Positions 17,644 to 52,940 are shown, counted from the stretch's first letter. The stretch: DNA of 64,000 bases from Chlamydiia bacterium (GCA_040382515.1 JBEIFH010000003.1:6965-70964), one strand, 5' to 3'. Program-made: numbers and translations. The notes: a model not told the origin generated them from the letters alone.

Positions 17644-18030
17644 TGGAGGCGGAGAGAATCGAACTCTCGTGCTCAATAGCTTCACCCCAAATGACTACAT
17701 GCTTAGCTCAAGTTGTAATTTTACGCTTTATTTTTGCCGGCGGAACCTGAGCAACCTAAAACAAAAAAAAGCGACCCTGTGCATCTTGAACACCACCCAC
17801 AGGATGAAACTGTGGTGTCCGTACCAAGATTATAACGATCTCATCTTAAATCCTTGGTCCAACCTAAGGAGATCGGCTACTTACTACTGTTAGGTATTAA
17901 GCGGCGAGAAGCATTTCTGCATCTTCACGTTTTGCAGTTATCTGCTGTGCCGGAATGATTAAAGAGGCCAACCGACGTCCTCTGCATGCCACCTGAACCT
18001 CGACTACCAAGTCGAAACCAGTACGCCCCC
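17644..18030 (-). ncRNA. ssrA: tmRNA (transfer-messenger RNA)
   Basis: On the minus strand the 5' end is GGGGGCGTACTGGTTTCGAC and the 3' end is GAGAGTTCGATTCTCTCCGCCTCCA. The acceptor stem GGGGGCG/CGCCTCC has G3:U, and the T-arm is GAGAG-TTCGATT-CTCTC. An internal ORF ends ...GAAATGCTTCTCGCCGCTTAA (EMLLAA*). CCA is not encoded. Confidence 0.88.
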
Positions 18031-26645: not shown

Positions 26646-27608
26646 TTAATTTAGCTCAAATACCTCTATTGAGTCAAATTTACCTTGATGGATCCCTGAA
26701 GTTTTGATGCTAAGCCTGAATTTTTTCCCTTTGGTAGGGAGGTTTTTCGGAATTTTTCCCTTCAAATGGTGGGTTTCTCCCTTCTGCTCATCTGTAAATT
26801 CGATAGGCAGCGAGGTCTGGGTCCCCACTTGTTCCAAAGATAGGGTGAACGGGGCAAACCCCTTAGGGCAACAGATCGTGGCGACCAGGCTGGACCCTTT
26901 TTGTAGGATCCCCTGTTGAAATTCGGGAAAACGGCGGGGAAAGTATCTTGCCGCACCTTTGCTATGATTCCCCTGGTCCAGTTGAAAAAATCTTGCGAGG
27001 GGGTGGGTTTTGTTCTGGATGTCGATCATATAGGGGAATGTCTCGGTTGCCGTCGGGTCGAAATGCAAGTCGATCCTCAGTCCGCTTAAAGGGGAGTTGT
27101 CATCATCCCAATATTTTCTAAATAAGCTCGATTTTTCAACCAATACGGGTTTATTTGAGACCGATTTGGGGGGCGACCAGACCTTTTTTGTTTTAGGGGA
27201 TACCTTGCGTCTATTGTCCGGCATCAAATCCCACTCAATCAAGTAAAGTTTTGCCAGTGTCGGGGGCTCTTGGTCAAAGTTTATAAAGGCTTTTTTTGGG
27301 GGGCAATAGGCTTCCAGGATTTCACCGGTATCGGCATGCATTTCATATAAAATCCACTGTGTTGCGTTAAGAGCCCCTTTTTCCACCCAGCCGCTAACGG
27401 CGTCTAACGACAATTTGGGATTGGAGTCCAAAGAGTGGATCTCTTCTATGATCAGTGTTTTTTCCGTTTTATCGTAAATTGAAATATAGACGATTTGATG
27501 CCCTTGTCTGTAGACGACAAAATCCCCTTTGACACCCTTGGAATATTTTTCTTTAAAAGAAAATCCGAAAAGGGGAATGAATAGAACTAGGAGTATCCAT
27601 CGCAGCAT
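26646..27608 (-). CDS. hypothetical secreted protein
   Basis: 320 aa with the N-terminal signal-like MLRWILLVLFIPLFGFSF. It lies 8 nt upstream of lepB on the same strand. Confidence 0.6.
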   Translation of the reverse strand: MLRWILLVLFIPLFGFSFKEKYSKGVKGDFVVYRQGHQIVYISIYDKTEKTLIIEEIHSLDSNPKLSLDAVSGWVEKGALNATQWILYEMHADTGEILEAYCPPKKAFINFDQEPPTLAKLYLIEWDLMPDNRRKVSPKTKKVWSPPKSVSNKPVLVEKSSLFRKYWDDDNSPLSGLRIDLHFDPTATETFPYMIDIQNKTHPLARFFQLDQGNHSKGAARYFPRRFPEFQQGILQKGSSLVATICCPKGFAPFTLSLEQVGTQTSLPIEFTDEQKGETHHLKGKIPKNLPTKGKKFRLSIKTSGIHQGKFDSIEVFELN

Positions 27609-27939
27609 GTTTCAAAGCTTAACAAAAAACGGTGTTTTTGGGGTTGTTTTCCCTTTAATTTTTTTTATCGGGTGCGCTTCAAGGGCCGAGATCGCGGGGC
27701 CGTCCAAAGAGGAGAAGGTGTGCTACGTCCAGAGCCTCAAGGAGAGGATCCTCAAGGCGGAGACTGCCATGATGCGTTTAAAATTCGATAAAGAGAAGCT
27801 CAATAGCCGATTTGGCAAGGTGAGCAAAATAGAATTTGTAGAAAAACTTACCAAGCTTGATGCCGAAATCGAGGAGCTAAAGCGCGAGATGCTCTACTTG
27901 AGATCGCTGAACTTGGACGATCTTTACGATTACCCTTGA
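27607..27939 (+). CDS. small putative lipoprotein with a coiled-coil region
   Basis: An in-frame ATG at 27607 gives MFQSLTKNGVFGVVFPLIFFIGCASRAE, which is lipobox-like (FFIGC). The track ORF starts earlier at 27529, inside the divergent gene. Confidence 0.5.
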   Translation: MFQSLTKNGVFGVVFPLIFFIGCASRAEIAGPSKEEKVCYVQSLKERILKAETAMMRLKFDKEKLNSRFGKVSKIEFVEKLTKLDAEIEELKREMLYLRSLNLDDLYDYP

Positions 27940-27997: not shown

Positions 27998-29203
27998 ATG
28001 AAAAAATCGACTTTACTTGCCTGCTTGTTTTATTCTTTGGTGAATTACCTGGCCTTTTTTGTTGTCATCCCCCTTTTTACACCGGAGATATTGGACCCTA
28101 GTTCCCCGTATCGCGATCCTTTGAATTTCATTGTCGACCCCACGACTCTCTTAGGGGTCGTTTTGGGGATATACGGTTTAGGGCTTTTTTCGGGCTCTTT
28201 GACAATCGGAAGGTGGAGCGACCTGTTTGGGAGAAAATGGGCTTTGAAACTCTCCATGATCGTATTTATCTTAGGTAATCTCGGTGTCGGCTATTTCTTT
28301 TCTCTAAAGAATGTCTGGATGCTTGTATTCTTCCGCTTTGTTACAGGTTTGGGATCAAGCGGAGCCCAGCTTTTGTACAATGCGATTGACGACTTGGAAT
28401 CGGACCAGAAAAGCAAGGGGAGGGCTATGGGTTATTTGGTGGCCGTCTCCTCGTTTGCGACCGTCGTAGGTCCCGTTTTCGGCTCTTTTTTTGTAGGCGA
28501 TCAGGGGTTCTTTCTTGGGCTGCCTTTTTATTTATTAGCCTTTTTGGGGGGCGCTTCCCTTTTGTTTCTTGAAAAAACATGGCCAAAAAAGTCTATAGAA
28601 GCGAAGGCACATGTTGACAATTTGAGAACCATACTATCAAACCCAAAGATTCTTTTTTTGGCAGCGACATTTTTTCTCATGATTTTAAATATAGAGAGTC
28701 TATTTGTTGCGATCCCGATTTTGATGGTGATGGCTTTTCAGGTGACAAGCAGTTGGATTGCTTTGTTTTTTGCCTATGGAGGGCTTGTAGCGGTTTTAAC
28801 GGGTGCCTTTATCATTCCCTGGGTAGGCCGGTTTTTTTCATTAAGGTTGGCCTACTTTTTCAGTTTTATTGGGCTGACTATTGCAAATTTGGCTTTCCTG
28901 CTGGCCTCGACCCCTGAAGAGGTCTTTGTTCCGTTTACCCTGTTTGCAATTTTCGGTTTGATTGCATGGTCTAAGGGAAACGAGTTGGCTCTAGCTGTTG
29001 TTGAAAAGAATAATTCGGGTGCTGTGATGGGCGTTTTGGGCAGTTTGATAGCTATAGCTGTTTTTGCCTCGTCAGTTTTGATGGGCTACACCGCTTCGAT
29101 CAATTTGTTGCTGCCGATCTTGGCCATGGCACTCATGGCGGTCTTAGGATCTTTTTTAACTCTTGCAGGATTTCATTTGTTCAAAACGACAAAAGGGAAT
29201 TGA
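27998..29203 (+). CDS. MFS transporter
   Basis: About 12 hydrophobic segments and the loop 2-3 motif GRWSDLFGRK. Confidence 0.8.
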   Translation: MKKSTLLACLFYSLVNYLAFFVVIPLFTPEILDPSSPYRDPLNFIVDPTTLLGVVLGIYGLGLFSGSLTIGRWSDLFGRKWALKLSMIVFILGNLGVGYFFSLKNVWMLVFFRFVTGLGSSGAQLLYNAIDDLESDQKSKGRAMGYLVAVSSFATVVGPVFGSFFVGDQGFFLGLPFYLLAFLGGASLLFLEKTWPKKSIEAKAHVDNLRTILSNPKILFLAATFFLMILNIESLFVAIPILMVMAFQVTSSWIALFFAYGGLVAVLTGAFIIPWVGRFFSLRLAYFFSFIGLTIANLAFLLASTPEEVFVPFTLFAIFGLIAWSKGNELALAVVEKNNSGAVMGVLGSLIAIAVFASSVLMGYTASINLLLPILAMALMAVLGSFLTLAGFHLFKTTKGN

Positions 29204-29708
29204 GCAATAAGTCCTTTTGTCGTTTCTAGGGCCCCAAAGGGGTCAAAATCCGGCTAATCTTTGCACTTTTTGTGCAAAAAGTCTAGAACAGCCAAAGAGG
29301 CTTTGACTTTAAACGCAAACTGTCTGGGGATCTTACTGGGTTCGATGTAGCTATAGAGAATATCGCTAAAAAATCCCGCCGGTTTAGTATTTTGCTGTCT
29401 GTAATTGGCTAAAGGGCCGTATTTTAGGGGGGTGAGAAGAGAACGACCGGTGAACCTATTTCCATACGGAATGAAGGCGAAGGTTTTTAAAATTGGCGTT
29501 ATAAGAGGTCCAAACGGGAGCTGCGGCAAGTTGTTTGCAGCATTTAAAAAAGGGTGCACTCCAGATGTGGGGTTTATCATAAAGTTTTCTCCTTTGAGAA
29601 AGAATTATAATTAAACATTATAAAAAATGATACTAAAAACTTTTCTGATTGATTTTCAACCTTTTATAAAGGTATTGTACTTCTCTAGATGCGTTTTTCG
29701 ATCAGGGT

Positions 29709-30707
29709 ATGGCAATTAAATTTTTAACTTTTTATACTTTTTTATCTGCTTCTATCAACCCCTTCGAAATTCTTTTTGAAGACAAAAAAGATTTGGAAAT
29801 TGCCGACATTGTACAGATACAACACCTTCTGAGAGAGGTGGATACACAAAAAACTTTGAAAAATCTCTACCTTGATCCTGAGGAAAGGGGGATTTTTGAG
29901 AGCTACCAACCGATAGCCGAGTATGAGAATCGGATCAGTAGGTGCCTCAAGCAGGTGCTCGCGGACCCTGAAAAGGGGCTGGTTCCCGAGGTAGGGCTGG
30001 TTAAAATTAATAGGGGTGGGGGGAACTGTTTTGTTGTAGGTTGCCCTTTCAACAGGCAATATCCGGATCTGCTTAAAAGTCTGATCCAGGGTCTAAAGGA
30101 GATTGGTTTTGACGGCCACGTCTACTATAGGATAGGGGGTGTGCCCAACCCAACCGGAACGGAGGCAAAATGGGCCGGCGTCCCCTACTCCTTTAAAATT
30201 TTTATGATGATGGAGGCCCACAAGTTGGGTCTTAGCAAGGTGATTTGGCTCGACAGTGCCCTTTTCCCTTTTAAAAATCCAAAAAGCTTATTTCAAATTT
30301 TAGAAACTCAAGGGGCGTTTGTCCTCCACCGGAGCCATCCGAAAAGCGCTATTTTGCCTGCCACCATGCATCTAATCGAAGCTATGACCCGTGTAGATGT
30401 ATCCCAAGCACCTCATGTGCGGATGTGGGTTTTTGGTTTAGATATGGACCGCCCCTGGGTGTCTTCTTTTCTAAAGGACTACACCGATATGTGCAAAGTG
30501 GGGATCCCTTTCATTTCCTGTTACCCAGAGGAGTTTGTGATCTCTGCCCTTGTGAAAAAATTTGAGGCGCACATACCCATTCTCCACGATCCGGTTTATA
30601 CCCCAAAATATGGGTATGGCAAGGTTGTCAAAACCCAAGACCACGACTGGGAAAATTATTGGAGAGCCAAAAAAGAGGGCTATATGTTTGTTGTGAGGGA
30701 TCATTGA
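29709..30707 (+). CDS. family B paralogue 1 (secreted, unknown function)
   Basis: Signal-like N-terminus followed by NPFEI. Core motifs are YYRIGGVPNPTG, VPYSFKIF, VIWLDSALFP and GIPFISCYPEE. The C-terminus is GYMFVVRDH. Confidence 0.75.
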   Translation: MAIKFLTFYTFLSASINPFEILFEDKKDLEIADIVQIQHLLREVDTQKTLKNLYLDPEERGIFESYQPIAEYENRISRCLKQVLADPEKGLVPEVGLVKINRGGGNCFVVGCPFNRQYPDLLKSLIQGLKEIGFDGHVYYRIGGVPNPTGTEAKWAGVPYSFKIFMMMEAHKLGLSKVIWLDSALFPFKNPKSLFQILETQGAFVLHRSHPKSAILPATMHLIEAMTRVDVSQAPHVRMWVFGLDMDRPWVSSFLKDYTDMCKVGIPFISCYPEEFVISALVKKFEAHIPILHDPVYTPKYGYGKVVKTQDHDWENYWRAKKEGYMFVVRDH

Positions 30708-30720
30708 AAGAGCTTCTTGA

Positions 30721-31680
30721 ATGAAAAAAATTGTCTTGTGTTTTGTATCTATTTTATTAACAGCAAACCCTTTTTTGCTGGACATTCAACCCTCAAAAGA
30801 GGAAGGGTACGAATATTTGGAGCATATCCAATCGCTGATTGCAAGAATAGATGTAAAAAAAGAGGTCTCTAAAATGTATCCCAAACCCTCGCTGTTTGGG
30901 GTAAAATACAACACTCAAGAGGATTTTTATCGCAGGTCGATGCGAGGGGCTGTACAGACTTTGATCGACAGGAATTCGGGCTATTTTCCAAAAAAAGAGT
31001 TGTTGGAGGTGAATGGGGGGAGCCGTGATTGTGTGGTTTTAAGTTGTCCAATCCATCCCAAATACGAACATTTACTGTACAGCCTTGTGGAATCATTGAA
31101 GGAGATTGGTTTCAAAGGGGCGATCTATTACCGCGTAGGGGGCTTTCCAAATCCGACCGGTGAGGAGGTGAGGTATGTCGCCGTTCCCTATTCCTTTAAA
31201 ATTTTTACCATGATCGAAGCTTATCAAAGGGGCTATAAGAATGTTTTGTGGTTGGACGCCTCAGTGTATCCTTTGCAAAATTTAGATCTCCTTTTTAGAA
31301 AAATTGAGAACGAGGGGGCTTTGATCAGCTGGAAGAAATTCAGAAAGAATGGCCTTTTACCAAAAACTCAAGAGATACTGCACAGCTTAACCGGCTACCA
31401 ACCCGGAAATTTTGACCATGTGAGCATGCAGGTTTTCGGTTTAAGGATGGATTTGCCCTGGGTGCAAGATTTTATTGAGGATTATTATAAAATGGTTCGA
31501 CTGGGTACTCCGTTTCTATCGTGCTATCCTGAAGAGCATGTGATTTCTGCTTTGGCCCACAAGTATAAAAGCCACCTGCCTGCGAGATTACAAAAAATTA
31601 TCCTCCCGAGTACCGACGACAATTCCCACTATGTGGACGCGAAAAAAAACGGTTATTATTTCTTCTTAAGGAAACACTAA
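30721..31680 (+). CDS. family B paralogue 2
   Basis: MKKIVLCFVSILLTANPF, YYRVGGFPNPTGEE, VPYSFKIF, VLWLDASVYP, GTPFLSCYPEE. Ends GYYFFLRKH. Confidence 0.75.
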   Translation: MKKIVLCFVSILLTANPFLLDIQPSKEEGYEYLEHIQSLIARIDVKKEVSKMYPKPSLFGVKYNTQEDFYRRSMRGAVQTLIDRNSGYFPKKELLEVNGGSRDCVVLSCPIHPKYEHLLYSLVESLKEIGFKGAIYYRVGGFPNPTGEEVRYVAVPYSFKIFTMIEAYQRGYKNVLWLDASVYPLQNLDLLFRKIENEGALISWKKFRKNGLLPKTQEILHSLTGYQPGNFDHVSMQVFGLRMDLPWVQDFIEDYYKMVRLGTPFLSCYPEEHVISALAHKYKSHLPARLQKIILPSTDDNSHYVDAKKNGYYFFLRKH

Positions 31681-31739
31681 AACTCAGTAAGATTGTGCTT
31701 CATTGTCTCATTTTGAAAACAGTGCTTAATCAGATTCAT

Positions 31740-32690
31740 ATGCGATTGGTTTTTTTACTTTTATTTACTCTGTCCGCTTTTGCTGAGGTGCCGAATCCTT
31801 TTGAAATAGAGTTTCCGATGCAAAGTTTTTTGTCATTTGAAGACTATGAGAGGGTGCAGAGCTTGATTCAAAAAAAAGAGCTTAAAGAGCTCATAGATGC
31901 CATCTATCCCACGAAATGCCCCTATTCGAAAAACGATCTGTATCGGCGCGTCTCCTGTTTTACGAGACAAACTTTGATTTCTAGAGAAAAAAATTTATTC
32001 CCTGAGGTGGTGCATATCCGAGGTAAAGAGGGGAGTCAGGACTGTATTGTTCTAGGGTGTTCATTTGATCGTACGTATCCGGAGATGCTCAGGAGCCTTG
32101 TTGCAGGTTTGAAAGAGATCGGGTATGAGGGGGCTATCTACTATCGCATAGGGGGATATCCCAATCCCACGGGCGAAGAGGTCCGTTACGCAGCGGTCCC
32201 TTATGCTCTTAAAATGTTCATGATCTTAGAGGCGCATCAGTTAGGTTACAATAAGGTATTATGGTTGGATTGTTCTGCCTGGCCACTTAAAAACTTGGAC
32301 TATTGCTTTGAAGCTATAGATAAAGAGGGGATCCTTGTCGAGTGGGGGCGGCCGAACACAGAATTATTGATTCCTCAAACAAGGGCTATTCTGGAAAAAA
32401 CGTTTGGTATGGATTTCTCAACGGCTCCCCACGTTGCCGGGTGGTTGTTAGGTTTCAAAATGGACCTCCCTTGTGTTAAAGAGATATTTAGGGATTTCTA
32501 TTCTATGGTGCGTAAAGGGACGCCTTTTCTATCAATGACCCCTGAGGAAACAGTTTTGACCGCCCTTTTTGCGAAGCATGCCCCCCCGTTGAAATTTCAT
32601 CCAAATCTGATGCTTGCGTCAAAAGAGAGTGATACAAGGCTTGTCGAAGGGAGGCAAAAGGGGTTTCGCTTTTTGATACGCACGCATTGA
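31740..32690 (+). CDS. family B paralogue 3
   Basis: The ATG at 31740 gives MRLVFLLLFTLSAFAEVPNPFEI (the track starts at GTG 31695). It has YYRIGGYPNPTGEE, VLWLDCSAWP and GTPFLSMTPEE. Ends GFRFLIRTH. Confidence 0.75.
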   Translation: MRLVFLLLFTLSAFAEVPNPFEIEFPMQSFLSFEDYERVQSLIQKKELKELIDAIYPTKCPYSKNDLYRRVSCFTRQTLISREKNLFPEVVHIRGKEGSQDCIVLGCSFDRTYPEMLRSLVAGLKEIGYEGAIYYRIGGYPNPTGEEVRYAAVPYALKMFMILEAHQLGYNKVLWLDCSAWPLKNLDYCFEAIDKEGILVEWGRPNTELLIPQTRAILEKTFGMDFSTAPHVAGWLLGFKMDLPCVKEIFRDFYSMVRKGTPFLSMTPEETVLTALFAKHAPPLKFHPNLMLASKESDTRLVEGRQKGFRFLIRTH

Positions 32691-32719
32691 CACGGACACA
32701 TTGATACGGAAAAATTTAG

Positions 32720-33682
32720 ATGTTCTACACACTTTTGTTTTTACTGGGGGCCTTTGCCAATCCTTTCGAAATAGAGATAGAGACCAAAAAAGAGCCATTA
32801 CAGGAGGATTACGAGGCTTTAGAAAGAGCGTTGAAGGAGATATCCGTAGCACCTTTGATCCTTCAAAATTATCCGATGAATTGGGATATTGGAAACTGGT
32901 TCACAAAGAGGGAACCCTACAGCGTCCAAGATTTTATCTTACGTTGCTCAAAGGGGCTGATGCAGCATTTTTTTGTTGATGAGTATAGTTGCTATCCGAA
33001 AATCGTCCATCAAAAAGGGGAGCAGAAAAGAGATTGCATCGTATTTTTTTGTTCTTACGACGGGCCTTACCCCCACATTTTACCGGAACTTGTCGGTGCT
33101 TTAAGGGAAGTGGGCTTTGACGGGGGGATCTACTACCGGATCGGGGGGTACCCTAATCCGACCGGAGATGAACTGCGCTACGCCGGAGTTCCGTATGCGT
33201 TTAAGGTTTTCGCTATCCAGGAAGCGCTAATGATGGGTTACGAGAATGTTTTATGGTTGGATACATCAGCTTGGCCTTTAGGAGGGGTGGAGGACATTTT
33301 CCAGGAGATTGCCACTGAGGGTTTTTATTTCGATTCGGGCAAACCAAATCCTTTGGGGCTACTCCCATTAGCGAAAAAAGAATTGGATGCGTATCTTGGG
33401 CGTAGTATCGCCTCAGAAAGGAAGGTGGCCGGTTGGATTATGGGAGTCTCGAAACAAGATCCACGGACCAAAAAAATATTGGAGGATTATAAAAGCCTTG
33501 TGCGGATGGGAATTCCGTTTTTATCTGTCAACCCCGAGGAGTACGTCCTGACAGCAGTTTTATTGAAAAACGGTGTCGCTCTCAAAGATAGGAAGAATTT
33601 GATGGTATCCTGTAAAAAAGACTATAAAGGGTACGTCGATGCAAAAAAAATGGGCTGCAAATTCATTATAAGAGCGCATTGA
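32720..33682 (+). CDS. family B paralogue 4
   Basis: MFYTLLFLLGAFANPFEI, YYRIGGYPNPTGDE, VLWLDTSAWP, GIPFLSVNPEE. Ends GCKFIIRAH. Confidence 0.75.
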   Translation: MFYTLLFLLGAFANPFEIEIETKKEPLQEDYEALERALKEISVAPLILQNYPMNWDIGNWFTKREPYSVQDFILRCSKGLMQHFFVDEYSCYPKIVHQKGEQKRDCIVFFCSYDGPYPHILPELVGALREVGFDGGIYYRIGGYPNPTGDELRYAGVPYAFKVFAIQEALMMGYENVLWLDTSAWPLGGVEDIFQEIATEGFYFDSGKPNPLGLLPLAKKELDAYLGRSIASERKVAGWIMGVSKQDPRTKKILEDYKSLVRMGIPFLSVNPEEYVLTAVLLKNGVALKDRKNLMVSCKKDYKGYVDAKKMGCKFIIRAH

Positions 33683-33686
33683 TCCG

Positions 33687-34847
33687 ATGATTAGAGTATT
33701 CACCCTGTTTCGAAAATATGTTCAATCCACGCAAAGCGGTCTTGAGAGCCAATTTTATAAAAATTTTCGATTGTATTTGCCCGTGCGTGCCGAAAGTTTT
33801 TTCGAAACATCCTCAAGCGGCTATCCCTTTTTTTTATGCCGGGCGCTATTCAAAAGGGATCTTCTAAAGATCTTACTTCTATTGATATGCGTCCATTCGG
33901 ATATTTTTGCACAGAACTCCTTCTTTTCAAGGAGTCTGAAAAATCCCTTCTTGGTAGATTTTGAAATTTCTGAGGATCCTACAAACGAGGAGCTGGAACA
34001 ATATCAAAACGAGTTGCGCCAGCACAACATAGCTGATGCATTGGATAGCCGATGGAGAAAGGAACAAAAACTTGCCCGGTATTTTCAGAAACCGGTTTCT
34101 AGGGACGATTTTTTTAATAGACTGCAGAGGGGGCTTTGGCAGACGATGGTCTCAAAAAAAAAGGGGCTTTACCCTGAAAAAAATGTCGTCACTTTGAATG
34201 GTGGGGGGGAAGATTGCATTGTACTGTTTTCATCTTACGATCGTGTCTATCCAAAATATGTTAAAAGCCTCATCAAAGCGCTCGAGGAGGTCGGGTTCAA
34301 GGGGAACGTTTACTACCGGTTGGGAGGGTATCCCAATCCTACGAAAAAAGAGATCCTGTATGCGGGTGTACCGTATGCGTTCAAGATGTTCATGCTCGAA
34401 GAGGCAAGAAATCTCGGTTTTCGCTATTTATTGTGGCTTGATGCGTCGGTTTTTCCCCTTAAAAATCCACAGCCCCTTTTTGACTTGATTCGTCAAAAAG
34501 GTGTGGTTTATAAAGATGCCGCCCCGTTGCCACAGTTCATTTTCGAGGAAACTAGGAGGGATATTTTTTTACTGACGGGGATCGATGTGATGAAATGCAG
34601 ACATTTGAGGATGCCGGTCTTCGGAATCGATACTAAAGTAATCTGGTTCCAGAAATTTCTCGATTATCACCGAAATCTAGTGGAGATAGGTACCCCTTTT
34701 TTTTCAGCGCTTCCTGAAGAATTCGTTCTGACAGCCCTCAAAGAGCTCTATTTCCCGAAAACGATCACCCCAACAGAAATGCTTCTGGGTTTCGATTATG
34801 TCCCTTCAGTGGCAAATGGATATTATTTTTACCTTAGGTTCCATTAG
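33687..34847 (+). CDS. family B paralogue 5 (longer N-terminus)
   Basis: The hydrophobic LLKILLLLICVHSDIFAQ is internal, then NPFLV. It has YYRLGGYPNPT, LLWLDASVFP and GTPFFSALPEE. Ends GYYFYLRFH. Confidence 0.7.
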   Translation: MIRVFTLFRKYVQSTQSGLESQFYKNFRLYLPVRAESFFETSSSGYPFFLCRALFKRDLLKILLLLICVHSDIFAQNSFFSRSLKNPFLVDFEISEDPTNEELEQYQNELRQHNIADALDSRWRKEQKLARYFQKPVSRDDFFNRLQRGLWQTMVSKKKGLYPEKNVVTLNGGGEDCIVLFSSYDRVYPKYVKSLIKALEEVGFKGNVYYRLGGYPNPTKKEILYAGVPYAFKMFMLEEARNLGFRYLLWLDASVFPLKNPQPLFDLIRQKGVVYKDAAPLPQFIFEETRRDIFLLTGIDVMKCRHLRMPVFGIDTKVIWFQKFLDYHRNLVEIGTPFFSALPEEFVLTALKELYFPKTITPTEMLLGFDYVPSVANGYYFYLRFH

Positions 34848-36173: not shown

Positions 36174-36325
36174 CCATTTAAAATGGGGCTTTTAAGGATT
36201 TGATTGCAAGATGTAAAAAGGACGTCCCGCTTTGGCTGGAAGTGAAATGGCCACGTCCCGCTTAGGCGGGACGTGGGGAAGAATTAAAAAATTAGAAACG
36301 AAATACACCGTGGCTAATTTATTGA

Positions 36326-36757
36326 TTAAGCATTTTTTGTTAAATCGATTTCTATACCATTATTAAAAAAAGCAGATACAGACCACCTTGCAACCGATGA
36401 TGCCTTTTCAGCAACAAATGCAACTCCCTTAACGGCAGCATCCTTGAAGGCCGCAGGGTTTTTCGCCACCACTAGGGCTCCGATGACAGCGACTGTCCCG
36501 GCGGCAAAGACCGCCCGCTTAGTTCCTTTTGCAGGAGCTTCGGTTTGTGTTTCAACAGATGCACAGATAGAATGAACCTCTGTTCCTTTTGCAGGAGCTT
36601 CGGTTTGTGTTTCAACAGATGCACAGATAGAATGAACCTCTAATTTTGCGATCTTTGCATGTAGTTCTTTGTTTTCTGAATCGTATGCCGTATTAGCTTT
36701 TTGCAAATCACTGATCATAGCCATTTGCCTTTCCACAATGCTTATTTGAGAACTCAT
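36326..36757 (-). CDS. small coiled-coil protein with a hydrophobic C-terminal region and an internal 20-aa duplication
   Basis: 143 aa. EVHSICASVETQTEAPAKGT occurs twice, followed by AVFAAGTVAVIGALVVAKNPAAF. AAGGAG lies 6 nt upstream of the ATG. Confidence 0.6.
   Translation of the reverse strand: MSSQISIVERQMAMISDLQKANTAYDSENKELHAKIAKLEVHSICASVETQTEAPAKGTEVHSICASVETQTEAPAKGTKRAVFAAGTVAVIGALVVAKNPAAFKDAAVKGVAFVAEKASSVARWSVSAFFNNGIEIDLTKNA
36522..36641. repeat. perfect 2 x 60-bp tandem duplication inside the CDS
   Basis: gttccttttgcaggagcttcggtttgtgtttcaacagatgcacagatagaatgaacctct is repeated exactly, head to tail. Confidence 0.95.
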
Positions 36758-37256
36758 GGGTAACTCCTTATTAGTTTTTATAAAACAATTATATAATAAA
36801 TTTAATTTATATTTAAAGTTTTTTTTTAAATCTGTGAGTGGTAGTGGTTTGCATTTAATGTGACCGTATCTTGCTTATTTAGAATGGGTAAGAATTTGAA
36901 AAAAGCAGGGTGTTGGGAGGGGTGGGATAGAAAACTTTATGAATGCCCGAAATCTCCCCAGTAGAGGGTTCTTTTTATTCAGGTATGGACTCTCCTGAAT
37001 TTGCTGCGGTGTTAAATGGATCCATCTTGTAAGAGTTCTTACCTAAAAAAATGAACTATCTTAAGAGGAAGGATATTATCTAGCTAGTTCATTTATAGGG
37101 ACTTGAATTTGCCTGAATTGCCTCGCTAAATTGTGTACCTATTCTCTAAAGTAATGAAAAGGCCCTCCTGTGTAAGGAGGGCTTTTGGAATATAAAATGG
37201 GGAGAAAATTATTGGTCAGGGTACCCATCTCAAGTATTCAGCAACCGGTGGTGGTT

Positions 37257-37628
37257 TTATCCTTCATCAATCGCTGCATCACTTCGGAATTGACAAGCTA
37301 CAATGCCCTTAAGACAAGTCTGTTTCGCGGCTAGATAGAACTTGTTACCTACGGACGCTTGGTAAACTAGGTCATGAGAAAAAGGCCTATTTTCCCTAAG
37401 TTTGTCTAGGAATAACGCTATTGTGTGTTTTTTCAGATCTATATGAGGGATCAAAGCTTGAGATTGGGGAGCTGAAGAGGCTAATGAGCCACCTGAAGAT
37501 AAGTAACCTTGTAACTCAGTAACATCGTCTTCCTCTAAAGGTTTATGGCGAACCCTTTTTGCCTGCTCTTGAGGAGGGGGTGAAACTTTCTCTTTGAATG
37601 CGTTGAATTTTTCTCCACAAAATCTCAT
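37257..37628 (-). CDS. hypothetical protein
   Basis: 123-aa ORF with no motif recognised. Confidence 0.35.
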   Translation of the reverse strand: MRFCGEKFNAFKEKVSPPPQEQAKRVRHKPLEEDDVTELQGYLSSGGSLASSAPQSQALIPHIDLKKHTIALFLDKLRENRPFSHDLVYQASVGNKFYLAAKQTCLKGIVACQFRSDAAIDEG

Positions 37629-37664
37629 ACAGGTTGAGAAGAATTGACCAATTTTTGTAAAAAA

Positions 37665-37769
37665 TTATTTTGCTAGCTTATAGATTTTAGAATCGGCTAT
37701 TGAAATCCCAATTCTATTATAGAATGTTGCTGAATTGTTTGGATTAATATTTTCGATTGAATTTGCCAT
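37665..37769 (-). CDS. possible 34-aa small ORF
   Basis: AAGGAG lies 7 nt upstream of the ATG. Translation is MANSIENINPNNSATFYNRIGISIADSKIYKLAK. It lies just upstream of the 123-aa ORF. Confidence 0.3.
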   Translation of the reverse strand: MANSIENINPNNSATFYNRIGISIADSKIYKLAK

Positions 37770-38601
37770 CTTTGTTCTCCTTGTAAGATGTAAATTTTAA
37801 ACTATTATTGTGTTTTTTTTTATATAAATTTTTACGCAAATGTTCTAATTAGTTGGATTTGTGGGGGATAAAAATAATAATCTTTTTTTGGCCAATTACG
37901 GATTCAACGGCTAAAAAAGGGATAAAGGGGCAGATGCCTATTTAAACTAGGTTCCAGGGTTCCCTTTTAGGGGGAAAATAGCCGCTAAGGGAGTTAGGCT
38001 TAGGACTTGTAACCTCAGCAGTTTAGCGTTTTGTCCAGGAGCAATACAATGCAAGGGAAGTTGCAACCCTTTTGTGCTCGTTTGCAAATTGCTACCGGAC
38101 TCTAACCTAGGTAAGGATTGTTTGGTTTTGGAGCCTTTTTCGGGTTTTTTTATGGGTTATCCTGAAAGGCCCCTTTATTCTTTTTAGTTACCGGGGTTTT
38201 ACCAGAGGCCGGAAATTCTTCTTTATGGATCCTCATCTTTGGAGGTTACGGCAGAAAAGAGGCAAAAAGAGGGATAAAATAGGTATAATATATTTTACAA
38301 TCTTTAAAAGCTCTACGTAGAAATAAACACGATAAAATGAATTATTGGACAAACAGTGGTTTTGAGAGCATTAAGACTAAAAGTAGCGCATCTAGATGGG
38401 GGAAATTCCCTAAATTAGACCCTTAAGGCAAGCTTAAAGCCAGATAACAAAACCCTAAATAACAGTTGTCCGATTAAACTCGCTTTCTTGGAGGAGGTGC
38501 TACAGTTGTTTTTTTGGTGCTTTTCAAAGAGATCGCCTTCTTTAAGGCGCAGGAAGTAGATAGTGGTTGGCTTAGGTCGTAAAGAGGCTATCGTCAAAAA
38601 A

Positions 38602-38626
38602 AGCCCTGTTCAGAACAGGGCTTTTT
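38602..38626 (+). terminator. stem-loop plus T-run (orphan copy of the terminator module)
   Basis: agccctgtt-cag-aacagggct followed by ttttt, with an A-run on the 5' side. Confidence 0.55.
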
Positions 38627-38914
38627 CTCTTTTTGAGGATTTCTCATTTTTTTCTCTCTTCAAAAAAGAGAAAGCAGCAAACCCTATTTTGAGATCAAAA
38701 GAAGAGGAACCCTAGGCTCAATAGGGCCTCCAGCCTTTCTTTTAGACGAGTTTTGGATTTTATACCCTCGAAACCGGCTCAGATATATGTCTCATTGAAA
38801 GGGTTGCATAAATTAGGCCCTATAAATCTGATCCTTCAACTTGCGGTTTATAGCTATAAGCGCACCGTCGCGCTAACATCCTTTCCTTTAGATGTATATA
38901 AATAAATAATTTTA

Positions 38915-38943
38915 TTTACAAAAAAATATATATGTGTTATAAT
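38915..38943 (+). promoter_or_regulatory. sigma-70-type promoter with extended -10
   Basis: TTTACA (38915-38920), 17-nt spacer ending in TGt, TATAAT (38938-38943). It lies 24 nt upstream of the ATG at 38967, which has a GGGGGGAA RBS. Confidence 0.6.
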
Positions 38944-38966
38944 AAATACATTGGGGGGAAATACAT

Positions 38967-39458
38967 ATGCCATTTGATACGGTTGTAAATACATGTGCTT
39001 GCGGGGGGGCAATCGAATATTCTGGGCAGGCTAACAAAGCTCAACATCCAGACTCAGATCTTGAGAAAAAAGTCGCTAATCTTGGTAAGGAACTATTAAA
39101 TACTCAAGCACAGTTAGAAACTTTAAACGACGAATTTGAAACAGCCCAAACGGAAGCTGTAAAATTTTTTTCAGAACTTCAAGGCAAAAATGAAGAATTG
39201 AGTTCAAGTAACAGACGTCTTTTAGCGGAACTTAAAGGTTCAAAACAAAGATTAACAACATATGAAGTTAAAGATGGATTAAGCAAAGCTACAATAGAGC
39301 AGCTTCGAACTCAAATTTCTGGACTTTCTAATCGAAAAAGCTTACAGGATCGTTGTGCTCTTTTGAAATTCCAAAGAGACTTATTGGCAGGTAGCTTGGT
39401 CGGTATAACTTTGGTTGCTGGAGCTATCTTAGCCTTTATGATGGGCAAAGCTCGCTAA
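38967..39458 (+). CDS. tail-anchored coiled-coil protein
   Basis: 163 aa. It has long heptad-like stretches (LEKKVANLGKELLNTQAQLETLNDEFETAQTE...) and a single C-terminal transmembrane segment, LLAGSLVGITLVAGAILAFMMGKAR. Confidence 0.65.
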   Translation: MPFDTVVNTCACGGAIEYSGQANKAQHPDSDLEKKVANLGKELLNTQAQLETLNDEFETAQTEAVKFFSELQGKNEELSSSNRRLLAELKGSKQRLTTYEVKDGLSKATIEQLRTQISGLSNRKSLQDRCALLKFQRDLLAGSLVGITLVAGAILAFMMGKAR

Positions 39459-39530
39459 TTTAAGATCAAGATCCATTGGTTCTCTGAGCTTTAAGTTTTT
39501 TTATCTAAAGGTTAGACAATCCCATAAAAA

Positions 39531-39558
39531 AGCCCCTGTTCTGAACAGGGCTTTTTTT
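39531..39558 (+). terminator. rho-independent terminator
   Basis: agcccctgtt-ctg-aacagggct followed by ttttttt, about 70 nt after the stop at 39458. Confidence 0.7.
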
Positions 39559-40266
39559 GCTTGAGGGGTCTTCATTTTTTTCTCCCTTTAAAAAAGAGGA
39601 AAAGGGCCAATTTATTTGCAAGAGTTCGAGCTCTGCGACCTTCGGTATTCTCAAGAAGAAAGGGGGGTGGGCCTAAGAAGGTTATCTCGATTGACCGGGC
39701 TAACTATAAATGATCTCACTTTGGGGGGAAATATTCTTCAACCCAGTTTAAATAAACACTTAGCTTTCTATTTGCTTGATCCTTATAGGTCTTACCGGTA
39801 TTTGCATGCGTTCTATCTTTAAACGCTTTCAAGTTGAGTTTTTCAAAAAGATCGCAGATCTGTTCATGAACCCTCTAAGCGTTCTTGAAGCATACGGATC
39901 CATCGGGTTTCTCTTTTTAAATTTTCACAAAGTAGATGAATGATGTCATTTATAGTTTTTTGTAGTGGATCATCATCTACTTATTTTAATTTAAGATTTC
40001 ACATGTCTATAAAACATAAATTTTTGTTAAGTTTTCTTAATAGGGTCAAACGTGTAAAGGTGAATAAACTGAAAAATTTTCTGCACAGATTTTAAAATTT
40101 ACATGGTAACCTGCTGCACTTTTGCTTTTGTTTGAAAAAAAAGAGTGGCTGTTTCTTGAGAAATGAAAAGGGATTGGATTAGAAGTAGGGGCTAACGGTT
40201 GCATAAAAAAATCTCCTTAAGAAGATATCTTTAAGTTGTAGTGTGATAGAAAGAACAATTTTTCGT

Positions 40267-46696: not shown

Positions 46697-49675
46697 CTAG
46701 AAAGAGTTTTGTTTTTTTGATTGTGAAACCAGATCTTTGAACAGACCCTCTTTACTCATCAAATCTGTATATGTTCCTGAGTCGACAACTTTCCCCTGAT
46801 CCATCACATAGATCCGGTCTGCATTGACGATTGTGCTAAGTCTGTGGGCGATAACGATTCTTGTTATGTTGAGTTCGGCTACGTTTTTAGATAAAATTTC
46901 TTGAGAATTTGCATCCAGGCAATTTGAGGCTTCGTCTAAAATCAATACTCTAGGCTTACCGATCAAGGCCCTTGCGATCAAAATCCGCTGCGCTTCGCCG
47001 CTGCTTAATGTGAGGGCATCACTTTGTAAAAAAGTGTGCAGGCCCATACCCATTTTTTTAAGATCTTCCTCTAAGTTAGCCAGCTTCACGGCCCTCTCGA
47101 CGTCTTCTTTTGAGTAGAGGCCACCACAAACTATATTCTGATAGATAGTTCCTGTAAAAATGGATCCATTTTGGAGCACCACCCCGAGTTTACGCCTCAG
47201 TTCTCTTTTGTTGAGAGTGCGGATGTCCTGATTATCGAAAAAAACAGTGCCTATCTGGGGAGTTTCAAAACCCAGAAGAATCCTAACTAAAGTGGATTTC
47301 CCACAACCGGAAGCTCCGACTAAAGCTACAAATTCTCCGGGCAAAAATTGGAGCGAGATATTATCCAATACATTTGGTAAACCTTCCCCATAGCTGAAGG
47401 TGACGTGATCCACATTCACCAAACCCTCCAGATCGTCCACCTTGATTTTATCCTTTTCGGACTCTATTTCACCTTTTAAAATACACTGTGCCCTTTCCCA
47501 TAACGGTATGACCTTAGCTAAATCCATGAAAATTTGAACTAAATTTGTGATTCCAACAGAAAAGGGGATGTAGGCTGAAAAAAAACCTACAAGCTTTCCA
47601 ATCGTGAATATATAGTCTCGAATATGATCATTAGTCGAGATGAGATATTTTGTAATTACCCCAAAAAATATTAAATAAGAGACAATAGGGACAAGATTTA
47701 TTAGAATTTCAACAGAGTTTGTTAAAACCAGAGACTTTGAAAATAGAAGCCGCTGTTTAGAAAAAAATGGACACCAGTACTCAAAAGCGTAGGCTTCTGC
47801 CCCATGCGATCTGATCTTGGAAATACCCGAAATTACTTGCGAAATTATGCTATTGATGAACCCACTCAATTCGAGGTATTTTCTCTGGATCAATACTTTT
47901 TTATATAGAAGAAAAGAGTTTACCGCGCCAACAGCTGAGACGATACATAAACCCAATAAGGCTAATTTGGGATAGATGTAATACATAGCAAAAAAATAGA
48001 ATAGAGAGAAAAAACCTGTTAAAAGGATGTTTGAGGTAGACTGACTGAACTTTTCTTGTATCGCTTTCATGGAAGAGGCCCTTTGGATCAGATCTCCCAC
48101 AGAATATTTCTTAAAAAAGTTTACCGGGAGCTTTAAAAGTCGATCCCAAATAGCTGATTCGACTTTTAAAGAAAAAAGAGTCGACATCCGAATGAGAATG
48201 AGTCCGTTGATTATGTTGAATGTCATGACACTTATAGTAATCAAAAAAAGGGCTAGAATGACCTCTAAGTACTGACTTTTATGCCCTAATTGGATCACAT
48301 TTGTAAAAAGGAATTGATTTAAAAAGGGGACCGTTGCCGCAAGAATACCACCGAGAGTTCCGAAAAACAAAATGTAGCAAAAACTTTTTAAATTCCCGGT
48401 GAATGAAAATTTCAGAATATCTTTAATTGTCATATTCTGTTCCGGGAACGGAATGTAAAAAATGTATCCTTTTTCTTGTAGTCTATCGATCACAGGATTT
48501 GAAAGAGGCTCCTTCTCGTCTGTTTCGGGGTCATGCAAAAAATATTTTTTGCCCTTGTTGTTTAAAAGGGCTACCGGTTTCCCCTCTTTAGTAAACGCAA
48601 ATATAGGGAGGCAATCATGGGACCAAAAACCATGTACAAGTTTGATCTCTCTGTAGCGGACCCCATTTTTCTCACAAATTTCACACATCTCAAGAAAAGG
48701 ATTAGTTTCAGGAAGAGTATGTTTTTCGAATGTGAAACCCATTTCTTGTCCGATCCAGCTGCAAACTTTGAAGATAGCATCCTTACTATCTAAAGGTTCC
48801 CTTTTTTTAAACTTATTTTGGGGAATGAACGATTTTAGCCCTTTTGTAATTGAGTACTTTTTCAGTGCGATTTTTTTTTCTCTGGTCTCAATCTCTAGCT
48901 TTTTCTTTTCTGGAAAATAACGATCTATGGCACTTTCTAGAACTCGATTACGGATCCAGTTGAAAGCAAGCCAAACTCCGGGGTGCAGCAGTACCTTTTC
49001 CGGGGGTAAAGGCTTAAGTTTTGTTTTTTCTAAAGCTTTGAGGCTCCAGGTATCTAGGTAAGGATAGATTTGAATATTTTTGTCCCAGTCTAAAGTGTAA
49101 GAGGAGTCAAGATCTAATCTCCCCTCAATAATTTCCATCCAGTGCTCATGTTCCAAATTCTTTCGTGGGGGGTTTTTTTTGATACCAAATCTCTGATTTG
49201 CCTCCAATTCTACAGGCTGCTCAAAATCAATTAAAAGGTCGTTATTTTTGAAAGACTCGTTTTTAGTAAATAATCTCCTGTAATTTAAAATAGTTCTATT
49301 TATAAGCTTTAAGATTTCTAAATTAAGATGAGGTTCTTTACGAATGATTTCATCAATTTTACCGCGGGTCAATTTTAAAATCTTCATCGGGGTAAAATTG
49401 AAAAGGGCCAATCCTTGATGCTCATGAGGACGCTCGGTAGCTATAAAAAAAAGATCGCCGGGATTTAAGGCGCGTAAAAATCTCAATTGCCCCTTTTCAA
49501 TCCCTTTTATCTCAGTATTAGGGATATTTTCTGTCAAAAAGATACCGCCGTTACCCTCTTTTATAAGCCAAAAACACTCTTCCGCATCAAAGAAAGTTTT
49601 TTTATTGATCTCGATGGCAACTTCCTCGAGATCGTAATGTTTCAATTTTTCAAATAGAAATATTGGATCGCTCAT
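46697..49675 (-). CDS. ABC transporter (TMD+NBD) with a cNMP-binding-like N-terminus and a Cys-less C39-like domain
   Basis: 992 aa. Walker A GASGCGKST, signature LSSGEAQR, Walker B ILILDEAS. The N-terminus has LIKEGNGGIFL...LRALNPGDLFF. The middle region ICEKNGVRYREIKL...CLPIFAF...FLHDP resembles C39 but lacks the QxxxxCG box. Confidence 0.88.
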   Translation of the reverse strand: MSDPIFLFEKLKHYDLEEVAIEINKKTFFDAEECFWLIKEGNGGIFLTENIPNTEIKGIEKGQLRFLRALNPGDLFFIATERPHEHQGLALFNFTPMKILKLTRGKIDEIIRKEPHLNLEILKLINRTILNYRRLFTKNESFKNNDLLIDFEQPVELEANQRFGIKKNPPRKNLEHEHWMEIIEGRLDLDSSYTLDWDKNIQIYPYLDTWSLKALEKTKLKPLPPEKVLLHPGVWLAFNWIRNRVLESAIDRYFPEKKKLEIETREKKIALKKYSITKGLKSFIPQNKFKKREPLDSKDAIFKVCSWIGQEMGFTFEKHTLPETNPFLEMCEICEKNGVRYREIKLVHGFWSHDCLPIFAFTKEGKPVALLNNKGKKYFLHDPETDEKEPLSNPVIDRLQEKGYIFYIPFPEQNMTIKDILKFSFTGNLKSFCYILFFGTLGGILAATVPFLNQFLFTNVIQLGHKSQYLEVILALFLITISVMTFNIINGLILIRMSTLFSLKVESAIWDRLLKLPVNFFKKYSVGDLIQRASSMKAIQEKFSQSTSNILLTGFFSLFYFFAMYYIYPKLALLGLCIVSAVGAVNSFLLYKKVLIQRKYLELSGFINSIISQVISGISKIRSHGAEAYAFEYWCPFFSKQRLLFSKSLVLTNSVEILINLVPIVSYLIFFGVITKYLISTNDHIRDYIFTIGKLVGFFSAYIPFSVGITNLVQIFMDLAKVIPLWERAQCILKGEIESEKDKIKVDDLEGLVNVDHVTFSYGEGLPNVLDNISLQFLPGEFVALVGASGCGKSTLVRILLGFETPQIGTVFFDNQDIRTLNKRELRRKLGVVLQNGSIFTGTIYQNIVCGGLYSKEDVERAVKLANLEEDLKKMGMGLHTFLQSDALTLSSGEAQRILIARALIGKPRVLILDEASNCLDANSQEILSKNVAELNITRIVIAHRLSTIVNADRIYVMDQGKVVDSGTYTDLMSKEGLFKDLVSQSKKQNSF

Positions 49676-49677
49676 AA

Positions 49678-51900: not shown

Positions 51901-51909
51901 ACATGACTC

Positions 51910-52940
51910 CTATTCCGGAAAAATTAAATCTATAGGACGCTTTTTCGAAATATGAACCCGAATATTGCAAAATTCAGGTGTAAAGCGGAAATTTTTTGGA
52001 CCTTTTTTTGAGGTCCATAGATAACCGGAAGGATCATTAGGATCTTTTTGTATTTCTATCCTTAAGTTGTATTTAGGATATTCTTCACCAATAAATTTTT
52101 GGAAAACTTCATTTTTTGCTAAATATTTCAAAAAACGTTCAGAGGTCCCCGGGTACGGATCCACATAAACAACTTTGCCCACTATGCTCCCATAAACAGG
52201 ATCCACATATTTTTGCATGGAGATGTAAGCTGTCATCCCCGCTTGGATTTTTCGCCCACTCGTGATATCAAAAAATCCGTAGACAAGGATATCATCCCCT
52301 TTCGTAAAGGGGGGGTCAACTAGGCAGATTTCAGTCCCAGCGGAAATGTAGTCTCCGGGCCCAACATACTTTGCAACAATCTCGCCTTCCACCTCGGAAA
52401 AAATAGGGATAAGAAGGGGATTTGCCTCTAATTCGTTTAAAATTTGTGTCTGTTGTTCGAGTTCCAGCTTAAGAGCTTCTACTTCGGGAGTGCTTTCTTG
52501 AGACTTCATACGATCTAAAGAAAATTGGATCTTGGCTATTTTAGAACACTGGTCATTGTAAGAACTTAGGTAGTTTTTGTCGTAAATTTTAGCTACTATC
52601 GTATGTTCATTTACAATTTCCCCTTCAAAAAGGGGCATTGATTCGACCAATCCCTCGTTTCTTGAGTATATGTAGTGTAACCCTTCCGAAGTTAAAACAA
52701 TTCCCTTCCCATCGGCATCGGAAACGATTTTCCCTTTGAAAAGCCAAATAAAAAAAAAGAGGACTATGACTCCTAAACAACCGAGGCCTAGCCATTCTTT
52801 GGGTCGAATAATCCGGATTAAAATATTTAGATCATCGGGTGAGATGAATGTATCTTCTTTTCCTTTTCTAAAGCGGGGTGAGTCGTAATTGTTTTTATTT
52901 TTTTCGAGCTGAGTTTGCCCGTTTTCTTTTGTAGAATCAT
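51910..52940 (-). CDS. HlyD-family membrane fusion protein with a disrupted or unclear 5' end
   Basis: The track ORF (TTG at 52650) lacks the membrane anchor. The same frame stays open up to 52989 and encodes FRKGKEDTFISPDDLNILIRIIRPKEWLGLGCLGVIVLFFFIW, a typical HlyD N-terminus, but it has no ATG/GTG/TTG. The ATG at 52940 is one frame off and would be joined by +1 A in the A7 run at 52898-52904. Confidence 0.7.

Follow-up and report, generated by a model that had tools for sequence, protein, structure and literature searches.

A tandem array of five DxD-less, GT-A-fold glycosyltransferase-like proteins with export-type leaders in a chlamydial genome, and their relatives in giant viruses

A 64,000-nucleotide stretch of DNA from a Chlamydiia bacterium (GCA_040382515.1, JBEIFH010000003.1:6965-70964), here referred to as the window, carries at positions 29709-34847 five consecutive genes for proteins of an uncharacterised family. 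It is reasonably probable that these proteins are anciently duplicated, individually conserved enzymes of the GT-A glycosyltransferase fold which lack the DxD motif, depend on nucleotide sugars and, following export through the Sec pathway, act outside the cytoplasm. A broader and considerably more tentative proposal is that environmental Chlamydiota Sec-export five, and up to seven, such DxD-less glycosyltransferases, which would draw on host nucleotide sugars in the inclusion lumen or the host in order to assemble or modify a glycan, and that the family has been exchanged with giant viruses living in the same protist hosts. Coordinates are those of the whole 64-kb window, and all five open reading frames (ORFs) of the array lie on the + strand:

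29709-30707, + strand: copy 1, 332 amino acids (aa), stop codon TGA; leader MAIKFLTFYTFLSASI (aa 1-16, 29709-29756), NPF at 29757-29765, WLDSA at 30246-30260, tail GYMFVVRDH at 30678-30704.
30721-31680, + strand: copy 2, 319 aa, the copy chosen for modelling; leader MKKIVLCFVSILLTA (30721-30765), NPF at 30766-30774, WLDAS at 31249-31263 (containing Asp179), tail GYYFFLRKH at 31651-31677.
31740-32690, + strand: copy 3, 316 aa counted from the ATG at 31740, the longest ORF running from a GTG at 31695; leader MRLVFLLLFTLSAFAEVP with an AFA/E junction (31740-31793), NPF at 31794-31802, WLDCS at 32262-32276, tail GFRFLIRTH at 32661-32687.
32720-33682, + strand: copy 4, 320 aa; leader MFYTLLFLLGAFA (32720-32758), NPF at 32759-32767, WLDTS at 33254-33268, tail GCKFIIRAH at 33653-33679.
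33687-34847, + strand: copy 5, 386 aa if the start is the ATG at 33687; hydrophobic segment LLKILLLLICVHSDIFA (aa 59-75) preceded by a 57-aa N-terminal extension of uncertain status, NPF at 33942-33950, WLDAS at 34434-34448, tail GYYFYLRFH at 34818-34844.

The five co-directional ORFs are real paralogues of one family, as the initial annotation of the window had proposed. They share 31-42% pairwise identity, with 53 alignment columns invariant across all five, and score at E = 1e-105 to 1e-125 against a hidden Markov model (HMM) of the family (E = 5e-123 for copy 1), so that their similarity lies far beyond chance; the same HMM, run across the 64-kb window, found exactly five copies and no sixth. 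The core motifs described for the array recur in all copies, including the conserved block G(T/I)PF(L/I/F)S..PEE, though the description has exceptions, with copy 1 carrying NCFV instead of DC(I/V)V, copy 2 ending its block in YE rather than YP, and copy 5 having lost the second Cys and reading PNPTK. The common tail was correctly recognised, R-x-His standing directly before the stop codon, with nothing between, in 5/5 copies. Successive copies are separated by 13, 59, 29 and 4 nt, in agreement with the 4-59 nt first reported, and because these four internal gaps are so short, copies 1-5 likely form one operon.

Scans of the five copies against Pfam and NCBIfam gave no match above threshold, in keeping with their original description as a family without a named domain; the single sub-threshold match, GT71/Mannosyl_trans3 (PF11051), concerned copy 2 only (residues 157-221, 12.3 bits vs a cut-off of 22, E = 0.11). 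Glyco_transf_8 (PF01501) matched none of the five copies at E <= 1, and a Pfam scan of 42 distant members produced one Glyco_transf_8 match at E = 0.0014. Three profiles of growing breadth found no significant match among PDB sequences, returning a sub-threshold segment of SetA together with noise. No significant match to any characterised non-glycosyltransferase family emerged from the profile searches, and no description of the family was found in the literature searched.

That the family folds as GT-A is supported at the fold level by structure prediction. An AlphaFold2 model of copy 2, built from a 90-sequence alignment, reached a predicted local distance difference test (pLDDT) score of 94.6 and a predicted template modelling (pTM) score of 0.92, with uncertainty only in the first ~10 residues. 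Comparison of this model with the PDB by Foldseek gave 15 matches with E <= 1e-3. All of the best 50 matches were GT-A glycosyltransferases, which bears out the GT-A-like layout suspected earlier. The leading matches had a probability of 1.00, the best E value (2e-5) belonging to the GT8 enzyme XXYLT1, and GT8 was further represented by LgtC, glycogenin and LARGE1. The catalytic domain of UGGT (GT24) and BoGT6a (GT6) matched at E = 1e-4 to 1e-3, BoGT6a showing the highest target-normalised template modelling (TM) score among the PDB matches (0.58), and further matches comprised MNT2/Ktr4p (MNT2 being related to the GT71 family), WbbM, the Stealth enzyme CpsY (hit 15), C2GnT and PBCV-1 A64R. 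In BFVD, Foldseek matched phage and giant-virus GT-A proteins, with a target-normalised TM-score of 0.70 at best E = 5e-10; since the best matches reach just this E value, the family itself appears to be absent from the viral proteins of BFVD. Beyond the shared core, the model of copy 2 contains an extra helical N-terminal segment (residues ~19-90, from NPF) and extra C-terminal elements.

The initial annotation had loosely likened the WLD strand to the strand that ends in DxD in the GT-A/GT8 layout. An hhalign comparison with E. coli WaaO/WaaJ, with a template profile of two sequences, was not significant (probability 0.9%, E = 0.06, 97 columns) but is topologically coherent, DCVVLSC falling on the first strand and VLWLDAS on VLYLDAD, so that the placement stands on a statistically weak profile alignment. 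Membership of GT8 itself fails on the HMM, on the DxD and on the C-terminal H..G..KPW motif. The family is an unclassified, unnamed GT-A variant without DxD and is not to be filed under GT8.

Among 198 near-full-length members the Trp of the WLD motif is present in 196 and the Asp in 195 (Asn in 3). The residue following this Asp is S, A, T or C and the next is A, S or G, neither being acidic in any member, which reduces the DxD to D-[SATC]-[ASG]. The earlier statement that the second Asp is Ser in all copies of the array was inexact, as the motif continues with SA in copy 1 and with AS, CS, TS and AS in copies 2-5, the family consensus being D-S-A. The last residue is His in 121/198 members and in every member whose alignment reaches the final profile column, and invariant polar residues comprise R72, Q79, E128, R138, E149, K160, E166 and E271/E272. 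A GT8-type H..G..KPW motif occurs nowhere in the alignment of the five copies. In the predicted Rossmann-like core, the near-invariant Asp (Asp179 in copy 2) would lie at the end of the WLD strand, at the GT-A DxD position, where GT-A enzymes bind the metal and diphosphate. Since the second acidic residue is always missing, we infer an atypical or metal-independent centre, which may be completed by R72, E149, K160, E166, E271/E272 and the C-terminal F-x-x-R-x-His, with basic residues and the C-terminal tail taking over part of the role of the DxD and His; a catalytic role of the terminal His is putative. A DxD-less, metal-independent centre is possible, given that the structure matches include BoGT6a and C2GnT, metal-independent GT-A enzymes without DxD.

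A different interpretation of the same residues is that the proteins are exported GT-A-fold non-glycosyltransferases, either pseudo-enzymes binding carbohydrate or nucleotide or enzymes of another chemistry, residing in the periplasm or envelope. Consistent with this are the loss of the DxD in 198/198 members, the missing GT8 C-terminal His/Lys motif and the presence of the sugar-phosphate transferase CpsY among the structure matches; furthermore, to our knowledge there is no supply of nucleotide sugars in a periplasm. We nevertheless regard it as quite unlikely, in view of the forty invariant positions, which include many charged and polar residues and fall in the canonical nucleotide and DxD region, of the real DxD-less enzymes among the structure matches, and of the leaderless viral relatives described below, which are fused to or clustered with active-type glycan enzymes.

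Loci carrying family members in other genomes are labelled L001-L023, L001-L006 being related arrays. Five copies are present in L001, L002, L004, L005 and L006 and seven in L003, and the copy number across chlamydial lineages varies from 1 to 7 per locus. The gene order lepB - CT021 - small ORF - major facilitator superfamily (MFS) transporter - array - photolyase is identical in the window and L001-L003, and the photolyase downstream of the array is kept in L004-L006. In a neighbour-joining tree the copies cluster by array position and not by genome, forming five orthogroups with bootstrap values of 98-100 which are common to at least seven genomes; mean identity is 66% inside vs 36% between orthogroups, and 40 columns are invariant across 33 array proteins. 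Columns fixed in each orthogroup and differing in at least three of them lie at 203, 208, 235 and 237 (copy-2 numbering), just after the WLD strand. The ratio of nonsynonymous to synonymous substitution rates (dN/dS) was computed on orthologue pairs and not on the five paralogues, whose synonymous sites are saturated at their level of identity; relative to the L001 orthologues it amounts to 0.13, 0.09, 0.10, 0.08 and 0.20 for copies 1-5, at dS 0.30-0.44. The array is ancient, and its copies are long-retained specialised paralogues under purifying selection.

These results contradict the diversifying pressure proposed in the initial annotation. A history in which a secreted family was amplified recently and diversifies by selection in a host arms race now appears very improbable. 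Five adjacent copies with export-type leaders and a copy number that varies among lineages would suit such a history, yet the position-wise grouping in seven genomes, the conserved gene order and flanks, the dN/dS of 0.08-0.20 for every copy and the low identity of the paralogues (31-42%) all oppose it, and recent amplification or diversifying selection was rejected on the grouping and the dN/dS values. As a separate observation, the metagenome-assembled genomes (MAGs) of L004, L005 and L003 bear a second, two-copy locus (L017, L018 and L019) on a divergent branch with about 30-35% identity, and the total of family copies per genome in those three MAGs is therefore at least seven to nine.

At E <= 1e-3, an exhaustive profile search retrieved 1,054 cluster representatives, all annotated as "hypothetical"; 189 of them reach <= 1e-30. 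The named members are all Chlamydiota (Chlamydiia, Rhabdochlamydiaceae, Parachlamydiaceae, Simkaniaceae and Candidatus Algichlamydia), apart from one "Micropruina" entry (L023, on the 968-kb contig JASGHL010000002.1). This supposed actinobacterial member was rejected as such, its label being probably wrong: the locus has a guanine-cytosine (GC) content of 0.46 and lies beside dacA-ybbR-folP, and its protein clusters with one from Chlamydiales.

The family also occurs in multi-domain proteins, fused to FkbM methyltransferase, GT32 (Gly_transf_sug), Fringe-like or GT11-like domains. One such member lies on a 133-kb contig of 31% GC beside genes for PCNA, thymidylate synthase, GFAT and asparagine synthetase; a GT2 gene, two GT32 genes and FkbM are likewise found near it, and close copies of the fusion protein occur on IMG/VR contigs named giant-virus MAGs. 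The contigs of the viral relatives carry PCNA, have 30% GC and are classed as giant-virus MAGs, with GT2, GT32, FkbM and GFAT genes next to the family members. Searching IMG/VR with the chlamydial alignment yielded 37 further loci, many labelled GVMAG and with 23-36% GC (two at 44%), whose proteins show 29-35% identity to the window's copies over their full length. By this measure, the window copies are as close to the viral relatives as they are to one another. All viral sequences fall into one clade (100/100), and with 12-39% support at the deeper nodes the transfer between chlamydia and giant virus may have run in either direction.

Standalone viral proteins begin at the motif itself (MENPFLLD..., MNIDFFEKLENPF...) and have no leader; their ORFs contain at most 21 codons before NPF, this stretch being hydrophilic (median KD9 0.13), and their tail reads ...QRxY vs RxH in the chlamydial proteins, while in fused proteins NPF is retained internally. 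The family therefore exists in two forms, one in Chlamydiota with a leader and a terminal His, the other in giant viruses, leaderless or fused and situated in glycan gene clusters. Because NPF is kept in leaderless viral proteins and internally in fusions, it represents the beginning of the domain rather than a sorting tag; it stands at the beginning of a segment modelled at pLDDT 80-98, and the idea that it serves as an EH-domain ligand or a post-cleavage sorting tag was dismissed on the grounds of its retention in viral and internal fusion domains. The glycan-gene context in giant viruses, as read from gene content, is the best functional evidence for the family.

In the window, copies 1-4 carry a hydrophobic leader of 13-18 aa directly before NPF. 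The hydrophobic N-terminus initially ascribed to all five copies thus holds directly for copies 1-4, whereas that of copy 5 follows the 57-aa extension if ATG 33687 is used. This extension is under relaxed constraint (dN/dS 0.37 vs 0.13 for the remainder), and in L002/L004/L005 the orthologues of copy 5 carry an ordinary leader, located some 34 aa ahead of NPF. Across 151 chlamydial proteins a median of 19 aa precedes NPF, with an uncharged run of median 15 residues; the -1 residue is small in 64%, K/R lies N-terminal of the uncharged run in 64%, an acidic flank follows NPF, and KD9 is >= 2.0 in 91% vs a median of 0.13 in 18 standalone viral proteins. Signal peptides were assessed by heuristics only (n-region, h-region of about 7-15 residues, small residues at -3/-1, N-terminal position), by which the junctions LTA/NPF (copy 2), AFA/EVPNPF (copy 3) and AFA/NPF (copy 4) fit the -3/-1 rule, that of copy 1 being weaker. 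Processing as a lipoprotein by signal peptidase II was discounted, as no conserved Cys is present at the junction of leader and NPF, the residue before NPF being A/S/T/E/I and others. The run is too short to cross a membrane, and from the distribution of charges the domain is predicted to lie outside; the leader is therefore interpreted as a Sec signal peptide which was seemingly added in the chlamydial lineage. In the Chlamydiota proteins, a 13-20 residue hydrophobic leader before NPF would be cut by signal peptidase I, leaving the enzymes outside the cytoplasm.

The leader could instead be an uncleaved anchor for cytoplasm-facing, membrane-tethered glycosyltransferases which add successive sugars to a surface glycan, such as the outer core of lipopolysaccharide or lipooligosaccharide. 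Nucleotide-sugar donors are available only in the cytoplasm, the fold is nearest to GT8-like retaining enzymes, the GT8 paralogues waaO-waaJ adjoin in the waa operon of E. coli, and five conserved specialised copies suit a stepwise pathway; this arrangement is unlikely. An uncharged run with a median of 15 residues is, however, short for a membrane span, and the K/R residues, N-terminal where present, together with the acidic flank that follows, predict an N-in/C-out orientation which leaves the domain outside. In addition, classical GT8 core enzymes are without such an N-terminal segment, and neither the window nor four further chlamydial loci contain flippase, ligase, polymerase or sugar-nucleotide genes near the family.

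The surroundings of the array identify the window as chlamydial, the hits in the genome collection being all Chlamydiota MAGs, the closest of them "Chlamydiae bacterium K_DeepCast_35m_m2_096" with 88-94% protein identity. Just upstream of the array, a Pfam scan places ileS, lepB and a CT021-family gene, in accordance with the intracellular bacterium originally supposed, and a photolyase gene in convergent orientation lies downstream. Two further features immediately precede the array:

27998-29203, + strand: MFS transporter gene, directly upstream of the array and co-directional.
29204-29708, + strand: intergenic region upstream of copy 1, 505 nt, the sole gap big enough for a promoter.

A weak sigma-70-like match is present upstream of copy 1 at 29594-29621; in promoter and terminator scans of the array region, matches were not enriched vs shuffles and by themselves constitute no evidence. 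The place of the MFS gene beside the array is kept in L001-L003, within the closest clade only, and no other conserved partner emerged. The transporter could be unrelated or could supply or remove a substrate, its position giving no evidence either way. In the window and in L008/L012/L013/L016, the neighbours of the family recognised by Pfam are housekeeping genes only. This agrees better with stand-alone secreted enzymes than with a gene cluster for a surface polysaccharide and offers no positive clue to a substrate.

Several other features of the window were recorded. A small ORF at 27529-27939 (+) is conserved in L001-L003 at 96/71/62% identity and, when read from an internal Met, begins with the lipobox-like leader MFQSLTKNGVFGVVFPLIFFIGC, putatively cut before ASRAE, and continues with coiled-coil-like sequence; it probably encodes a small lipoprotein, whose true start would avoid the apparent overlap with the CT021-family gene. 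A transfer-messenger RNA gene with the tag peptide AKREDAEMLLAA lies at 17644-18030 (-), just upstream of ileS. Between the photolyase gene and ksgA, the region 36200-40200 has a lower GC content (0.38-0.39) and short ORFs only, and an ORF of 143 aa at 36326-36757 (-), for which Pfam gave no match, includes a segment of 20 residues perfectly duplicated in tandem (EVHSICASVETQTEAPAKGT twice), beyond which its C-terminal part is hydrophobic. Two adjacent ORFs at 6658-7839 and 8241-9176 (+) encode protein kinase domains of the eukaryote type (Pkinase, E = 1e-16 and 2e-17); their products, again arranged in tandem, may also be directed at the host. The block at 46697-52650 (-) resembles a type I secretion system, with an ATP-binding cassette (ABC) transporter of 991 aa, a 739-aa ABC exporter of the C39-peptidase kind and an HlyD-family protein, and points to a processed peptide or a bacteriocin-like molecule as the exported substrate.

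Taken with the predicted fold and the sequence conservation, nucleotide-sugar-dependent glycosyltransferase activity is the most likely function of the five array proteins. In the proposed course of events, the proteins would first leave through Sec and lose their leaders ahead of NPF. They would then be released further, with type II secretion as one conceivable route, to reach the inclusion lumen or the host cell, a step proposed because nucleotide sugars are not expected in the periplasm. There the five enzymes would transfer sugars, differing in sugar, acceptor or linkage; the group-specific residues of the orthogroups cluster at 203-237. Several points weigh against this scheme. An exported Leloir-type enzyme is one without obvious donor supply, and the loss of the DxD possibly leaves a pseudo-enzyme or other chemistry, e.g. 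Stealth-like sugar-phosphate transfer. Sequence searches of Pfam, NCBIfam and the PDB give no link to any characterised glycosyltransferase, and the query-normalised TM-scores against the PDB are just 0.34-0.45, low values that likely stem from the extra N-terminal and C-terminal elements of the model. With regard to export, K/R is missing from 36% of leaders, the leader of copy 1 is only moderately hydrophobic (KD9 1.39) and the start of copy 5 is uncertain. Finally, no glycan or secretion genes were recognised by Pfam near the family, either in the window or in L008/L012/L013/L016.

The analysis defines an unannotated protein family of 1,054 cluster representatives with a confident fold assignment and a distribution over two habitats, and it would allow several hundred chlamydial genes to pass from "hypothetical protein" to "GT-A-fold glycosyltransferase-like, exported". 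Provided that they are active and exported, these would be the first GT-A glycosyltransferases of an intracellular bacterium to depend on Sec. They would suggest that glycans are made, or the host is glycosylated, within the vacuole that chlamydiae occupy in protists, and the GT-A repertoire would gain a catalytic variant without DxD. As exported effectors, they would form a previously undescribed class of glycosylating proteins that rely on Sec, and a CAZy family of their own. The sharing of the family by chlamydiae and giant viruses provides a concrete case for gene exchange among co-resident protist parasites.

Among known systems, GT8 (XXYLT1, LgtC, glycogenin, the Xyl domain of LARGE1, WaaO/WaaJ) supplies the best structure match and many of the top ones, shows the same order of beta1-alpha-beta2 and a later strand ending in Asp, and also contains tandem paralogues. 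The window family differs from it in having no PF01501 match, D-[SATC]-[ASG] in place of the DxD, an extra N-terminal helical segment of ~85 residues from NPF, an R-x-His end and an export leader; WaaO/WaaJ, moreover, have the motif IHYxGxTKPWH, of the C-terminal type that completes the metal/diphosphate site in GT8, which the window copies lack, their own conserved block being G(T/I)PF(L/I/F)S..PEE. UGGT of GT24 and BoGT6a of GT6 resemble the family in fold and have no sequence similarity to it. UGGT is further distinguished as a eukaryotic enzyme of the endoplasmic reticulum lumen which carries the DxD, and we know of no export leader on BoGT6a. The latter, a metal-independent GT-A enzyme without DxD, makes the blood-group A antigen (PDB 4ayj title).

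The Legionella effector SetA, a GT-A glucosyltransferase, contains a 33-41 residue segment resembling G(Y/F)xxVLWLD...P...L..LF and was the sole PDB sequence to recur across profiles, at E = 0.03-1.4, below significance. The match is limited to one strand-loop-helix and is taken as chance or local analogy; SetA residues 31-71 are presumably not where its DxD lies.

For the proposed site of action, precedents exist in Chlamydia itself. GlgA, which also uses a nucleotide sugar, is a GT-B enzyme. In C. trachomatis it is secreted by type III secretion, and glycogen is synthesised in the inclusion lumen from UDP-glucose which a recruited host transporter brings into the inclusion; in addition, type II secretion delivers the Sec-leader proteins CPAF, HtrA, CT311 and CT795 to the lumen of the inclusion and to the host cytosol (PMC6717882). 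These proteins are unrelated to the window family and belong to Chlamydia trachomatis rather than to the window's environmental lineage, while offering a precedent both for Sec-leader proteins in the inclusion lumen and host cytosol and for a nucleotide-sugar-using enzyme in the inclusion lumen.

Giant viruses build their own glycans with multi-domain enzymes that combine glycosyltransferase and methyltransferase domains, such as PBCV-1 A064R, which consists of two glycosyltransferase domains and a methyltransferase (PMC9614988). The window domain is a separate, unnamed family, and the window proteins are single-domain and carry leaders. Domain 1 of A064R is nonetheless a structure match to the copy 2 model (2p6w), and the viral members of the family are likewise fused to FkbM methyltransferase or glycosyltransferase domains and located in viral glycan clusters.

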